This document shows positions 21,523 through 41,690 of a DNA stretch of 64,000 nt, piece by piece; position 1 is the stretch's first letter; each line of letters begins with the position of its first letter. Source of the DNA: Escherichia coli (lineage in GTDB: Bacteria; Pseudomonadota; Gammaproteobacteria; Enterobacterales; Enterobacteriaceae); assembly GCF_030013205.1 (NCBI RefSeq), contig NZ_CP122648.1, one strand, 5' to 3'. Below the pieces are notes generated by a model that was given only the letters and a program-made list of their open reading frames with translations, had not been told where the DNA came from and made no database searches. The position numbers and the translations under genes were made by a program.

Positions 21523-23169
21523 ATGTCAAACAAACCCTTTATCTACCAGGCACCTTTCCCGATGGGGAAAGACAATACCGAATACTATCTACTCACTTCC
21601 GATTACGTTAGCGTTGCCGACTTCGACGGCGAAACCATTCTGAAAGTGGAACCAGAAGCCCTGACCCTGCTGGCGCAGCAAGCCTTTCACGACGCTTCTT
21701 TCATGCTCCGCCCGGCCCACCAGAAACAGGTCGCGGCTATTCTTCACGATCCAGAAGCCAGCGAAAACGACAAGTACGTGGCGCTGCAATTCTTAAGAAA
21801 CTCCGAAATCGCCGCCAAAGGCGTGCTGCCGACCTGCCAGGACACCGGCACTGCGATCATCGTCGGTAAAAAAGGCCAGCGCGTGTGGACCGGTGGCGGT
21901 GATGAAGAAGCGCTGTCGAAAGGCGTCTATAACACCTATATCGAAGATAACCTGCGCTATTCACAGAACGCGCCGCTGGACATGTATAAAGAGGTCAACA
22001 CCGGCACGAACCTGCCTGCGCAAATCGACCTGTACGCGGTAGATGGCGATGAGTACAAATTCCTTTGCGTTGCGAAAGGCGGCGGCTCTGCCAACAAAAC
22101 GTATCTCTACCAGGAAACCAAAGCCCTGCTGACTCCCGGCAAACTGAAAAACTTCCTCGTCGAGAAAATGCGTACCCTCGGTACTGCAGCCTGCCCGCCG
22201 TACCATATCGCGTTTGTGATTGGCGGTACGTCTGCGGAAACCAACCTGAAAACCGTCAAGTTAGCAAGCGCTCACTATTACGATGAACTGCCGACGGAAG
22301 GGAACGAACATGGTCAGGCGTTCCGCGATGTCCAGCTGGAACAGGAACTGCTGGAAGAGGCCCAGAAACTCGGTCTTGGCGCGCAGTTTGGTGGTAAATA
22401 CTTCGCGCACGACATTCGCGTTATCCGTCTGCCGCGTCACGGTGCATCCTGCCCGGTAGGCATGGGCGTCTCCTGCTCCGCTGACCGTAACATTAAAGCG
22501 AAAATCAACCGCGAAGGTATCTGGATCGAAAAACTGGAACACAATCCAGGCCAGTACATTCCACAAGAACTGCGTCAGGCCGGTGAAGGCGAAGCGGTGA
22601 AAGTCGACCTTAACCGCCCGATGAAAGAGATCCTCGCCCAGCTTTCGCAATATCCGGTTTCCACTCGTTTGTCGCTCACCGGCACCATTATTGTGGGTCG
22701 AGATATTGCACACGCCAAGCTGAAAGAGCTGATTGACTCCGGTAAAGAACTTCCGCAGTACATCAAAGATCACCCGATCTACTACGCGGGTCCGGCGAAA
22801 ACGCCTGCCGGTTATCCATCAGGTTCACTTGGCCCAACCACCGCAGGTCGTATGGACTCCTACGTGGATCTGCTGCAATCCCACGGCGGCAGCATGATCA
22901 TGCTGGCGAAAGGTAACCGCAGTCAGCAGGTTACCGACGCGTGTCATAAACACGGCGGCTTCTACCTCGGTAGCATCGGCGGTCCGGCGGCGGTACTGGC
23001 GCAGCAGAGCATCAAGCATCTGGAATGCGTCGCTTATCCGGAGCTGGGTATGGAAGCTATCTGGAAAATCGAAGTAGAAGATTTCCCGGCGTTTATCCTG
23101 GTCGATGACAAAGGCAACGACTTCTTCCAGCAAATCGTCAACAAACAGTGCGCGAACTGCACTAAGTAA
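21523..23169 (+). CDS. fumB: Class I fumarate hydratase, anaerobic
   Basis: 548 aa; Fe-S fumarase; C-terminal CANC motif. Confidence 0.95.
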
Positions 23170-23291: not shown

Positions 23292-23942
23292 ATGACCCGC
23301 ACACTCAAGCCGTTAATTCTTAACACCGGCGCACTGGCGCTAACGTTAATCCTGATTTATACCGGCATTTCGGCCCGTGACAAACTCACCTGGCTGATGG
23401 AAGTGACACCGGTGATTATTGTCGTGCCGCTACTGCTTGCCACCGCTAAACGTTATCCGTTAACGCCGCTGCTCTATACGCTCATTTTCTTTCACGCCAT
23501 CATCCTGATGGTCGGCGGACAATACACCTACGCGAAAGTCCCCGTTGGTTTTGAGGTGCAGGAATGGCTGGGGTTGAGCCGTAATCCGTATGACAAACTG
23601 GGGCATTTTTTCCAGGGGCTGGTGCCTGCACTGGTGGCACGAGAGATCCTTGTGCGCGGGATGTACGTTCGCGGACATAAGATGGTGGTGTTTCTGGTCT
23701 GCTGCGTGGCGCTGGCGATAAGCGCGATGTATGAATTAATCGAGTGGTGGGCGGCGCTGGCAATGGGCCAGGGAGCGGATGATTTTCTCGGCACCCAGGG
23801 CGACCAGTGGGACACGCAATCCGATATGTTCTGCGCGCTGCTTGGCGCATTAACGACGGTGATATTCCTCGCTCGCTTTCATTGCCGCCAGCTACGGCGC
23901 TTTGGCTTAATCACCAGAGCGCCGGAAGCGATTACCCCTTAA
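23292..23942 (+). CDS. yjdF: Inner membrane protein YjdF, with a C-terminal tail that may differ from K-12
   Basis: 216-codon ORF; I recall K-12 YjdF as 209 aa; stop codon overlaps melA stop. Confidence 0.8.
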   Translation: MTRTLKPLILNTGALALTLILIYTGISARDKLTWLMEVTPVIIVVPLLLATAKRYPLTPLLYTLIFFHAIILMVGGQYTYAKVPVGFEVQEWLGLSRNPYDKLGHFFQGLVPALVAREILVRGMYVRGHKMVVFLVCCVALAISAMYELIEWWAALAMGQGADDFLGTQGDQWDTQSDMFCALLGALTTVIFLARFHCRQLRRFGLITRAPEAITP

Positions 23943-25294
23943 CGGTGCAACCAGCCAGGCAGCCAGTCGCCGTGGGCAGCAATCAAGTCGTCAACAAGAG
24001 CATATATTTCGTCAATGCCCAGCACGGCGGCAGTATGCGGGTCCATCATCGCGGCGTGGTAAACACGGTCGCGATTTTCCGTAAGAATGGCTTCGGTCAG
24101 CAGCGTCTGTACGTTGATGTTGGTTTGCATCAGGGCGGCCAGATGCGAAGGTAGCGTACCGACTTTGGTCGGCTGAATGCCATTAGCATCAACCAGACAG
24201 GCCACTTCCACACAACATCCTTGTGGCAGGTTATCAATCAATCCATCGTTACGGACGTTGCCGTAAATCACACTCGGCTCGCCAGTCCAGATAGCGTTCA
24301 TGATTGTGCTGGCATATTCCCGTGACGGTTTAATATCAATCCGGGAGGCGTTTTTATACTCCTCCAGCTCTTTATGCCAGTTCGCCAGCTGCTCGACGCA
24401 GCGTTTCGGGTACTCATCCAGCGGTACTTTATAACGCTCAATCAAATCCTCACGACCTGGCTTAATAAACCACGGTGTGTACTCAGCAAAATGTTCTGAC
24501 GATTCCGTGACGAAGTAGCCCAGCTTTTTGAACATTTCGTAGCGCACAATATTCTGGCAGCGAGTATTGCCATGAATATTCGGCTTCGGTGCCTGCCCTG
24601 CTTCATAAGCCGCCAGCAGTTCCGGGTAGAGATTCACGTAACTGCCGTCGGCGGTTTTGCGCTCCAGTTCCAGGTAAAACGCCATATGGTTGATACCTGC
24701 ACAACGGTAACGCAGCGTAGACGGGTCGATATTGAGGTCACGCGCCAGCTCTTCCGCCGTTCCCTGCACCGAATGGCACAGCCCTACCTGTTTGATATGC
24801 GGATAGCGGGCATACATCGCCCAGGTATTCATCGCCATTGGGTTAACATAGTTGAGCATGGTGGCATCGGGGCAGACTTCCGTCATGTCCTCGCAAATTT
24901 GCCACAGATGCGGAATGGTACGTAGCGCGCGCATAATACCGCCCGGCCCCAACGTATCGGCAATGGTTTGTTCCAGACCATGCCGCTTACAGACCTCGAA
25001 ATCAGTCACCGTGCAAGGTTCATAACCGCCAATCTGAAATGCCACCACGACAAAATCAGCATCCTGTAAGGCTTCTTTCTGTTGGGTGTGGCAGGTGATT
25101 TTGCCGCTGGCCCCTGCTGAATCCATCAGCTTACGCACCACAATGTGCGACTCTTCCAGGCGGGTGGGATCAATGTCCATCAGGGCAATATGCGCCGTTT
25201 TCAGCGCCTCGCGATGGAACACATCACCAAGAATATTTTTAACGAAAATCGTCGAACCAGCGCCGATAAATGTAATTTTGGGTGCAGACATCAT
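23939..25294 (-). CDS. melA: Alpha-galactosidase (melibiase)
   Basis: 451 aa MMSAPKITFIGAGS... ending GWLHR; NAD-binding GxGS motif. Confidence 0.95.
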   Translation of the reverse strand: MMSAPKITFIGAGSTIFVKNILGDVFHREALKTAHIALMDIDPTRLEESHIVVRKLMDSAGASGKITCHTQQKEALQDADFVVVAFQIGGYEPCTVTDFEVCKRHGLEQTIADTLGPGGIMRALRTIPHLWQICEDMTEVCPDATMLNYVNPMAMNTWAMYARYPHIKQVGLCHSVQGTAEELARDLNIDPSTLRYRCAGINHMAFYLELERKTADGSYVNLYPELLAAYEAGQAPKPNIHGNTRCQNIVRYEMFKKLGYFVTESSEHFAEYTPWFIKPGREDLIERYKVPLDEYPKRCVEQLANWHKELEEYKNASRIDIKPSREYASTIMNAIWTGEPSVIYGNVRNDGLIDNLPQGCCVEVACLVDANGIQPTKVGTLPSHLAALMQTNINVQTLLTEAILTENRDRVYHAAMMDPHTAAVLGIDEIYALVDDLIAAHGDWLPGWLHR

Positions 25295-25372
25295 GCAGAT
25301 CTCCTGGCTTGCTTGAATAACTTCATCATGGCAGGCGAATCTGCAGAAAACCTCCGGCTTCCAGGTTGAGCA

Positions 25373-25426
25373 TTCCCATAAACTCAGATCCTACGTGAAG
25401 CAGCAGTAAATCTGAGTTTATGGGAA
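25373..25426. promoter_or_regulatory. Inverted pair of MelR-type binding sites in the melR-melA divergent promoter
   Basis: ttcccataaactcagatc (25373-25390) and its inverted copy atctgagtttatgggaa (25410-25426). Confidence 0.6.
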
Positions 25427-25576
25427 TAAATTACCTGAAAAGCAGAGTTTTCGGCCTCAGAATGCTCGGACGGTCCCCTCGCCTCTCTGGGAAGAGAGTG
25501 AAAACCGTGCTCCCACTCGCAGTCATCCTCCCTCACTCCTGCCATAATTCTGATATTCCAGGAAAGAGAGCCATCC

Positions 25577-26485
25577 ATGAATAAAGATACGTTTATGTGC
25601 AGTAGCGACGAAAAACAGACCCGCAGCCCGCTATCGCTGTATTCGGAATACCAGCGGATGGAGATTGAGTTTCGCGCACCGCATATCATGCCCACCAGCC
25701 ACTGGCATGGTCAGGTCGAAGTGAATGTGCCTTTCGATGGCGATGTGGAATACCTGATCAACAATGAAAAAGTGAATATCAATCAGGGTCATATCACGCT
25801 GTTCTGGGCCTGTACACCGCACCAACTAACAGATACCGGAACCTGTCAGAGCATGGCGATTTTTAATCTGCCGATGCATCTGTTTCTCTCCTGGCCGCTG
25901 GATAAAGACCTGATTAACCACGTCACTCACGGTATGGTGATCAAATCACTGGCGACACAGCAACTTAGCCCGTTTGAAGTGCGCCGCTGGCAGCAGGAAT
26001 TGAACAGTCCGAACGAGCAAATTCGCCAGCTCGCCATTGATGAAATTGGCCTGATGCTCAAGCGATTTAGCCTCTCTGGCTGGGAACCGATTCTGGTCAA
26101 TAAAACCTCGCGCACACACAAAAACAGCGTCTCGCGCCATGCGCAATTTTATGTCAGCCAGATGCTGGGCTTTATTGCCGAAAACTATGATCAGGCGCTG
26201 ACCATCAACGATGTGGCTGAGCACGTCAAACTTAACGCCAACTATGCAATGGGGATATTCCAGCGGGTCATGCAATTGACGATGAAACAGTACATAACCG
26301 CGATGCGCATCAACCACGTTCGCGCGTTACTGAGCGATACCGATAAAAGTATTCTCGATATTGCCCTGACGGCAGGCTTTCGTTCAAGTAGTCGTTTTTA
26401 CAGCACGTTCGGCAAATATGTCGGCATGTCGCCGCAACAATACCGCAAACTTAGCCAACAGCGCCGCCAGACGTTTCCCGGCTAA
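25577..26485 (+). CDS. melR: Melibiose operon AraC-family activator
   Basis: 302 aa; C-terminal AraC-type HTH. Confidence 0.95.
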   Translation: MNKDTFMCSSDEKQTRSPLSLYSEYQRMEIEFRAPHIMPTSHWHGQVEVNVPFDGDVEYLINNEKVNINQGHITLFWACTPHQLTDTGTCQSMAIFNLPMHLFLSWPLDKDLINHVTHGMVIKSLATQQLSPFEVRRWQQELNSPNEQIRQLAIDEIGLMLKRFSLSGWEPILVNKTSRTHKNSVSRHAQFYVSQMLGFIAENYDQALTINDVAEHVKLNANYAMGIFQRVMQLTMKQYITAMRINHVRALLSDTDKSILDIALTAGFRSSSRFYSTFGKYVGMSPQQYRKLSQQRRQTFPG

Positions 26486-26680: not shown

Positions 26681-28951
26681 ATGATGAAAGTATTAATTGT
26701 TGAAAGCGAGTTTCTCCATCAAGACACCTGGGTCGGTAACGCCGTTGAGCGTCTGGCTGATGCTTTAAGCCAGCAAAATGTTACCGTGATTAAATCCACC
26801 TCCTTTGATGATGGTTTTGCCATTCTCTCTTCAAACGAAGCCATTGACTGCCTGATGTTCAGCTATCAAATGGAACATCCGGACGAACATCAAAACGTCA
26901 GACAATTGATCGGTAAGCTTCATGAGCGCCAACAAAACGTGCCGGTCTTCCTGTTGGGCGATCGGGAAAAAGCCCTCGCCGCAATGGACCGGGATCTGCT
27001 GGAGCTTGTCGATGAATTCGCCTGGATTCTGGAAGATACCGCCGACTTTATCGCCGGACGCGCCGTTGCCGCGATGACCCGCTACCGCCAGCAACTGTTA
27101 CCGCCACTGTTCAGCGCGCTGATGAAATATAGCGACATCCATGAATATTCCTGGGCAGCGCCAGGCCACCAGGGTGGCGTTGGTTTTACCAAAACACCCG
27201 CCGGACGTTTCTACCATGACTACTATGGTGAAAACCTGTTCCGCACCGACATGGGCATCGAACGAACTTCCCTCGGTTCTTTGCTTGACCATACTGGCGC
27301 ATTTGGCGAAAGCGAAAAATATGCCGCACGCGTATTTGGTGCCGATCGCTCCTGGTCGGTAGTCGTCGGTACTTCCGGCTCTAACCGCACCATCATGCAG
27401 GCTTGCATGACCGATAACGATGTCGTGGTCGTTGACCGTAACTGCCATAAATCCATCGAACAAGGCTTGATGCTGACAGGCGCGAAACCGGTCTACATGG
27501 TGCCAAGCCGCAACCGCTACGGCATTATCGGGCCAATCTATCCGCAGGAAATGCAACCTGAAACCTTGCAGAAGAAAATCAGTGAAAGCCCGCTGACCAA
27601 AGACAAAGCCGGGCAAAAACCGTCTTACTGCGTGGTGACCAACTGTACCTATGACGGCGTGTGTTATAACGCGAAAGAAGCGCAGGATCTGCTGAAAAAA
27701 ACCTCCGATCGTCTGCACTTTGACGAAGCCTGGTACGGCTATGCACGTTTCAACCCGATCTATGCCGATCACTATGCCATGCGCGGCGAACCTGGCGATC
27801 ACAACGGTCCTACCGTTTTCGCCACCCACTCCACCCACAAACTGCTGAATGCACTGTCACAGGCCTCTTATATTCATGTACGTGAAGGTCGTGGGGCGAT
27901 TAACTTCTCCCGCTTCAACCAGGCCTACATGATGCATGCCACCACCTCCCCGCTGTATGCCATCTGCGCATCCAACGACGTGGCAGTGTCGATGATGGAC
28001 GGCAACAGCGGCCTGTCACTGACGCAGGAAGTGATCGACGAAGCGGTTGATTTCCGTCAGGCGATGGCGCGGCTGTATAAAGAGTTCACCGCTGACGGTA
28101 GCTGGTTCTTCAAACCGTGGAACAAAGAAGTCGTCACCGACCCACAAACCGGCAAAACCTATGACTTTGCTGACGCACCAACTAAACTGCTGACCACCGT
28201 TCAGGACTGCTGGGTCATGCATCCGGGCGAAAGCTGGCACGGCTTCAAAGATATTCCGGATAACTGGAGTATGCTCGACCCGATTAAAGTCAGCATCCTT
28301 GCTCCGGGAATGGGTGAAGATGGTGAACTGGAAGAAACCGGTGTTCCGGCGGCGCTGGTCACAGCCTGGCTTGGTCGCCACGGCATTGTGCCTACCCGTA
28401 CCACTGACTTCCAGATTATGTTCCTGTTCTCTATGGGCGTGACCCGTGGGAAATGGGGGACTCTGGTTAACACCCTTTGCTCCTTCAAACGCCACTATGA
28501 CGCCAACACCCCGCTGGCGCAGGTGATGCCGGAACTTGTTGAACAATATCCTGACACTTACGCGAACATGGGGATTCACGATCTGGGTGACACCATGTTT
28601 GCCTGGCTGAAAGAAAACAACCCTGGCGCACGGTTGAACGAAGCCTATTCCGGCCTGCCGGTGGCGGAAATCACCCCACGTGAAGCGTACAACGCGATTG
28701 TCGACAACAATGTCGAACTGGTATCCATTGAAAATCTGCCAGGACGCATCGCGGCAAACTCAGTTATCCCGTATCCGCCAGGAATCCCGATGCTGCTGTC
28801 TGGTGAAAACTTCGGCGATAAAAACAGTCCGCAAGTAAGTTATTTACGCTCGCTGCAATCCTGGGACCATCATTTCCCTGGGTTTGAACACGAAACAGAA
28901 GGGACAGAAATTATTGACGGTATTTACCACGTTATGTGTGTGAAAGCGTAA
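26681..28951 (+). CDS. adiA: Biodegradative arginine decarboxylase
   Basis: About 755 aa (start at 26681 or 26684); fold-type I PLP decarboxylase; paralogue of cadA. Confidence 0.95.
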   Translation: MMKVLIVESEFLHQDTWVGNAVERLADALSQQNVTVIKSTSFDDGFAILSSNEAIDCLMFSYQMEHPDEHQNVRQLIGKLHERQQNVPVFLLGDREKALAAMDRDLLELVDEFAWILEDTADFIAGRAVAAMTRYRQQLLPPLFSALMKYSDIHEYSWAAPGHQGGVGFTKTPAGRFYHDYYGENLFRTDMGIERTSLGSLLDHTGAFGESEKYAARVFGADRSWSVVVGTSGSNRTIMQACMTDNDVVVVDRNCHKSIEQGLMLTGAKPVYMVPSRNRYGIIGPIYPQEMQPETLQKKISESPLTKDKAGQKPSYCVVTNCTYDGVCYNAKEAQDLLKKTSDRLHFDEAWYGYARFNPIYADHYAMRGEPGDHNGPTVFATHSTHKLLNALSQASYIHVREGRGAINFSRFNQAYMMHATTSPLYAICASNDVAVSMMDGNSGLSLTQEVIDEAVDFRQAMARLYKEFTADGSWFFKPWNKEVVTDPQTGKTYDFADAPTKLLTTVQDCWVMHPGESWHGFKDIPDNWSMLDPIKVSILAPGMGEDGELEETGVPAALVTAWLGRHGIVPTRTTDFQIMFLFSMGVTRGKWGTLVNTLCSFKRHYDANTPLAQVMPELVEQYPDTYANMGIHDLGDTMFAWLKENNPGARLNEAYSGLPVAEITPREAYNAIVDNNVELVSIENLPGRIAANSVIPYPPGIPMLLSGENFGDKNSPQVSYLRSLQSWDHHFPGFEHETEGTEIIDGIYHVMCVKA

Positions 28952-41609: not shown

Positions 41610-41690
41610 GTAAGCCGGATAAGGCGCTCGCGCCGCATCCGGCAACGATGCCGACTGCCTGATGCGACGCTGACCGCGTCTTATCAGGCT
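41610..41690. repeat. REP/BIME-type extragenic palindromes
   Basis: gccggataaggcgctcgcgccgcatccggc and gcctgatgcgacgctgaccgcgtcttatcaggc. Confidence 0.7.

Follow-up and report, generated by a model that had tools for sequence, protein, structure and literature searches.

The perfect inverted repeat between melR and melA in a 64-kb stretch of Escherichia coli DNA, here called the window, almost certainly consists of the two strong MelR operators of the divergent melAB/melR regulatory region, Site 2 (25372-25389, proximal to melA) and Site 1 (25410-25427). We assign the sites in this way because both arms are identical to K-12 and fit every property stated in the text of Samarasinghe et al. 2008 (PMC2377442); the identification is based on that text together with the K-12 sequence. 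The feature is already known, a well-studied, textbook operator pair of the AraC family, and is real but ordinary. Observed directly in this analysis were the identity to the K-12 sequence, the agreement in geometry, the intactness of the cognate regulator and the conservation of the sites in evolution. A sequence-only reading of the window had proposed paired MelR binding sites in the melR-melA promoter, and this proposal appears to be borne out by the K-12-identical arms and the published geometry.

The repeat has 18-bp arms at 25372-25389 (ATTCCCATAAACTCAGAT) and 25410-25427 (ATCTGAGTTTATGGGAAT), separated by a spacer of exactly 20 bp at 25390-25409 (CCTACGTGAAGCAGCAGTAA), and positions 25370-25429 as a whole read gcATTCCCATAAACTCAGAT-CCTACGTGAAGCAGCAGTAA-ATCTGAGTTTATGGGAATaa. 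The arms had previously been given as 17 bp, separated by about 20 bp. Such arms are present at that position, but the true perfect length is one base more, 18 bp, and the spacing between the 18-bp arms is exactly 20 bp. The outermost pair of the repeat is 25372 A / 25427 T; one step further out, 25371 C and 25428 A do not match. The repeat can be extended to 42-nt arms at 76% complementarity, with perfect pairing limited to the 18-bp core. As the arms are exact reverse complements, the repeat consists of two identical 18-bp copies in inverted orientation, as do MelR Sites 1 and 2. No other perfect inverted repeat with arms of at least 16 bp and a spacer of at most 60 bp is present in the 64-kb window, where the analytic chance expectation for an 18-bp inverted repeat is about 6e-5. 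When up to three mismatches were allowed, the 18-mer still occurred in just two copies in the 64 kb, the two arms themselves, against an expectation of 0.02 from shuffled sequences.

Intact melR and melA adjoin the repeat in divergent arrangement. The genes of the surrounding region, and the junction between melA and yjdF, are as follows.

21523-23169, plus strand: fumB
23292-23942, plus strand: yjdF
23919-23938, no strand assigned: filler at the melA-yjdF junction, 20 bp in place of 1665 bp
23939-25294, minus strand: melA, alpha-galactosidase, the gene of the MelR-dependent promoter (451 aa, 448/451 identical to K-12)
25577-26485, plus strand: melR, the AraC/XylS-family regulator that would bind these sites (302 aa, 301/302 identical to K-12)
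26681-28951, plus strand: adiA

The 282-bp melR-melA intergenic region differs from that of K-12 MG1655 at 8 of 282 positions (97.2% identity by megablast), and both arms are identical. The region is matched in 5400 of the 5426 complete E. coli genomes, and a swine isolate has it at 100% identity; the melA-yjdF region is likewise 100% identical to that of many porcine ETEC/O139:H1 genomes. Within the spacer there is a single change from K-12, C to T at 25393, adjoining a TCACG half-site. The exact 56-mer of the window (arms plus spacer with T at 25393) was found in only 23 of the 5426 genomes. Set against K-12 MelR Sites 1 and 2 (PMC2377442), the 18-bp arms, the 20-bp spacing, the flanking promoter sequence, Site 1' and Site R are identical, whereas the window carries the one change in the CRP1 spacer (25393) and a downstream operon that consists of melA alone, melB being deleted.

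According to PMC2377442, MelR sites are 18 bp long, the consensus is present at both Site 1 and Site 2, and it has G at positions 5 and 13, which are contacted by N222 and R273. The same paper centres Site 2 at -174.5 relative to the melR start, places the melR start 237 bp upstream of the melAB start, and has CRP binding between the site pairs 2/2' and 1/1'. It further describes Site R, which lies over the melR start with G at position 5, a non-consensus A at position 13 and an orientation opposite to that of Site 2, and Site 2', which exists and is unoccupied without melibiose. Read as ATCTGAGTTTATGGGAAT, each arm in the window has G at positions 5 and 13 (the contacts themselves being taken from PMC2377442). 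The MelR encoded in the window keeps both N222 and R273 and scores 634 bits against the NCBIfam MelR equivalog NF007693, for which the cut-off is 253. The layout that we assign to the regulatory region is given below.

25318, minus strand: predicted melAB transcript start, placed by means of Site 2 at -174.5 and the distance of 237 bp between the starts (PMC2377442)
25352-25369, no strand assigned: weak MelR Site 2', expected position only (centre -42.5), derived from the 20-bp spacing and PMC2377442
25372-25389, minus strand: MelR Site 2, reading ATCTGAGTTTATGGGAAT in the melA sense; 18/18 consensus match, identical to K-12
25390-25409, no strand assigned: 20-bp spacer separating Sites 2 and 1, expected to hold CRP1 of the melAB promoter
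25410-25427, plus strand: MelR Site 1, the same 18-mer as Site 2, inverted; 18/18 consensus match, identical to K-12
25430-25447, minus strand: probable MelR Site 1', CTCTGCTTTTCAGGTAAT; 12/18 consensus match with G5 and G13, the third-best intergenic match
25548-25565, plus strand: MelR Site R, TTCTGATATTCCAGGAAA; 11/18 matches with G5 and a non-consensus A13, overlapping the predicted melR start
25555, plus strand: predicted melR transcript start, derived from the Site 2 centre at 25380.5 plus 174.5 (PMC2377442)

Site 2 is centred at 25380.5, which is -62.5 from the predicted melAB start and -174.5 from the predicted melR start; the two starts are 237 bp apart, and Site R lies over the latter. 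Relative to the predicted melAB start, Site 1 is centred at -100.5 and Site 1' at -120.5, and Site R is at -238.5 on the strand opposite to Site 2. These are the four best matches in a consensus scan of the intergenic region (-62.5 with 18/18, -100.5 with 18/18, -120.5 with 12/18 and -238.5 with 11/18), and we take them to be the published positions of Sites 2, 1, 1' and R in the literature of the Busby laboratory. The centre of CRP1 presumably falls at -81.5, and just one half of a CRP recognition sequence can be discerned by eye in the spacer, the TCACG on the minus strand. Among the approximately 128,000 18-mers in the window, 20 match the consensus at exactly 12 of 18 positions and 26 match at 12 or more. 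All three traits given for Site R in PMC2377442 (overlap with the melR start, G5/A13, and orientation relative to Site 2) hold in the window.

A -10-like hexamer, CATGAT, is present on the minus strand at 25325-25330 with the predicted melAB start 7 bp downstream, and the -10 hexamer CATAAT at 25543-25548 has the predicted melR start at the same distance. A simple sigma-70 scan found no promoter-like consensus site; this result fits activator-dependent promoters and is therefore uninformative. The consensus scan of the intergenic region gave no good match for Site 2' at 25352-25369, in agreement with a weak site that is occupied only in the presence of melibiose. A full-text literature search for the site sequence returned unrelated primer coincidences only. 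The sequence-only reading had named MelR sites mapped elsewhere in the intergenic region as the outcome that would speak against it; the published properties of the K-12 sites match the repeat itself.

The proposed mechanism follows the K-12 literature, from which MelR and CRP occupancy, activation and repression in this strain are deduced. Each 18-bp arm would be asymmetric and would be contacted by the two helix-turn-helix motifs of a single MelR molecule, and the arms would be inverted because the two MelR molecules face opposite ways, with CRP bound to the 20-bp spacer. When melibiose is present, Sites 1', 1, 2 and 2' would each hold a MelR molecule, and these four together with a CRP dimer would make up the complex that activates the melAB promoter, which in this strain would drive melA alone. 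In the absence of melibiose, MelR at Sites 2, 1 and 1' would act together with Site R to repress melR (autorepression via Site R). The earlier idea of a pair therefore needs a qualification: the repeat would indeed comprise two MelR sites, but not a single dimer operator, the arms belonging to two different pairs (2/2' and 1/1') and being the strong site in each. A related arrangement is known from the AraC sites I1, I2, O1 and O2 of araBAD/araC. Both regulators belong to the AraC/XylS family, and a monomer of either contacts an asymmetric site of about 17-18 bp through two helix-turn-helix motifs. In both systems the promoters of regulator and operon diverge, there is co-dependence on CRP, and the regulator represses its own gene via distant sites. 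They differ in that the strong sites of the mel region are inverted and flank the CRP site.

Conservation outside E. coli was assessed by scanning species-representative genomes for the pattern CATAAACTCAG-N18-26-CTGAGTTTATG. Five loci were retrieved, from Citrobacter braakii, C. portucalensis, Serratia oryzae and two non-coli Escherichia. The arm cores are kept in these five other species, and the spacers and flanks diverge. In the two loci with ORFs listed (Serratia oryzae and C. portucalensis) the repeat adjoins ORFs of the sizes of melR, melA and melB. The spacer in C. braakii and C. portucalensis (L007 112-167 and L009 1340-1395) is 21 bp long, not 20, and its sequence is unrelated to that of E. 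coli.

Within E. coli, two alleles of the central intergenic region (window 25392-25520) were found, with approximately 33 differences per 200 bp compared to 1-2% in the flanking genes. The B2-type allele is carried by about 1011-1036 genomes, among them Nissle 1917, ST131 and other UPEC/APEC-type strains; the loci used for comparison were L002 5427-5708 and, in both L003 and L004, 4001-4282. Amid the heavy divergence of this allele, Site 1 and Site 1' stand out as an island without a single change. Its Site 2 carries either A11T or C3A (all five sampled genomes are changed in Site 2), and a 56-mer search found the perfect repeat in 0 of 1036 B2-type genomes. The two alleles differ at 8 of the 20 positions of the CRP1 spacer, and the Site 2' region has two changed positions in two of the three B2-type genomes compared. 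The exact K-12 56-mer is present in 2066 genomes. From the roughly 1900 K-12-type genomes that differ from it, a sample with one mismatch was drawn (L011-L013 121-176, L017), and all three genomes sampled carried G15T in Site 1 (ATCTGAGTTTATGTAAT-type, position 15); the one carrier checked for melB was melB-positive. Since imperfect arms occur in both B2-type and K-12-type genomes, perfection of the repeat is not required. Positions 5 and 13 were unchanged in all arm variants seen, the variant positions being 3, 11, 14 and 15.

A BLAST comparison with K-12 revealed that 1665 bp (L001 5268-6932) are replaced in the window by 20 bp at 23919-23938. The lost K-12 segment takes in melB with the spacers on either side (melA-melB and melB-yjdF, the latter with the yjdF stop codon), and yjdF is lengthened to 216 aa, overlapping the melA stop codon by 4 bp. 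melB was not found anywhere in the 64-kb window. At 41615-41644 a stretch of 30 bp matches (87%) the REP-like sequence that follows melB in K-12 and is probably one of the dispersed REP elements. The same deletion junction was detected in 1263 of the 5426 complete E. coli genomes (about 23%) at 95.7-100% identity, among them Nissle 1917 and ST131; every sampled carrier of the B2-type allele has it. In Nissle 1917, yjdF (L002 3432-4074) is annotated as a frameshifted pseudogene; the copy in the window is an intact 216-aa ORF. The junction is not recent, because its 1263 carriers have diverged by up to about 4% at this location, and the melB deletion is a common natural variant and an old polymorphism. 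In the literature we found nothing specific describing melB loss in phylogroup B2. The locus of E. coli AQ15 (L005, NZ_CP043487.1, 1900-6500), near tRNA-Phe, is a patchwork of truncated genes with about twenty short partial-gene fragments (cadC, melR, pmrB, proP, phn, als and others). It was left out of the comparison; an assembly artefact, or else extensive rearrangement or deletion, may account for it.

The absence of melB raises the alternative that the sites are vestigial, the mel system no longer serving melibiose use and the operators persisting for lack of time to decay. The window does lack melB, in most melB-less genomes (those of the B2 type) Site 2 is imperfect and the Site 2' region is changed at two positions, and the share of melibiose-positive E. 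coli given in one paper, 75% (PMC11546641), resembles the 77% of genomes that lack the deletion junction. We nevertheless consider this explanation improbable. Lack of time is hard to reconcile with a junction shared by 1263 genomes at up to about 4% divergence. Neither melA nor melR is truncated in any of the five melB-less genomes examined, and the differences found in them are almost all synonymous (37 nucleotide and 0 amino acid differences between the melA genes of Nissle 1917 and RMDEC465). Arm variants also occur in a melB-positive genome, positions 5 and 13 are constant in every variant seen, and MelA can still receive its substrate, as LacY transports melibiose (PMC4308713). The sequence-only reading had remarked that the regulatory sites are retained although melB is missing. 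The gene is truly absent, but retention is unremarkable and is to be expected, because the operators serve two intact, selected genes, melA and melR.

Two further explanations dispense with MelR altogether, and we give each of them hardly any weight. Perfect 18-bp arms could in principle pair as the stem of an RNA or DNA hairpin (a terminator, an attenuator, a small-RNA stem or a cruciform) instead of binding protein, and weak matches to plant miRNA precursor hairpins in Rfam do extend over the repeat. However, the repeat lies upstream of both predicted divergent starts and is not expected to be transcribed, no T-run is present, and a scan found no terminator-like site. In E. coli variants, moreover, a change in one arm is not compensated in its partner, as would be required of a stem. 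The Rfam matches reach 19-27 bits against gathering scores of 100 or more, and the plant miRNA hairpin was rejected as a far sub-threshold, generic hairpin artefact. Inverted symmetry, and nothing else, speaks for a palindromic operator of some other dimeric regulator or for the ends of a small mobile element with terminal inverted repeats. The 38 bp between the arm centres is too great a distance for one dimer operator, and no further copy of the 18-mer occurs in the 64 kb, even at three mismatches. Moreover, the repeat is found at the orthologous melR-melA position in several genera, and the published properties of the MelR sites fit in full. The assignment to MelR Sites 2 and 1 is thus by far the preferred reading.

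What is mildly new in these data is at the population level only, namely the frequency and age of the melB deletion, the dimorphism of the promoter alleles and the natural operator variants. The single-base variants at positions 3, 11, 14 and 15, with positions 5 and 13 constant, constitute a natural mutational data set that is consistent with the published contact map. The melB deletion may explain the classic observation that approximately 25% of E. coli are melibiose-negative, the similarity of the frequencies being suggestive only. The lineage of the window combines the melB-less junction with a K-12-type promoter and perfect sites; B2 strains have a divergent promoter with altered Site 2, Site 2' and CRP1 spacer. 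This difference might reflect regulatory retuning after loss of the transporter. More broadly, it is possible, if rather doubtful, that the loss of melB is ancient in about a quarter of E. coli (the present swine lineage and B2-type strains, for example Nissle 1917 and ST131), that melR, melA and their operators have stayed under purifying selection, and that MelR and MelA now operate as a module with a different transporter (LacY, or in pig strains a raffinose permease) or act on a different alpha-galactoside.
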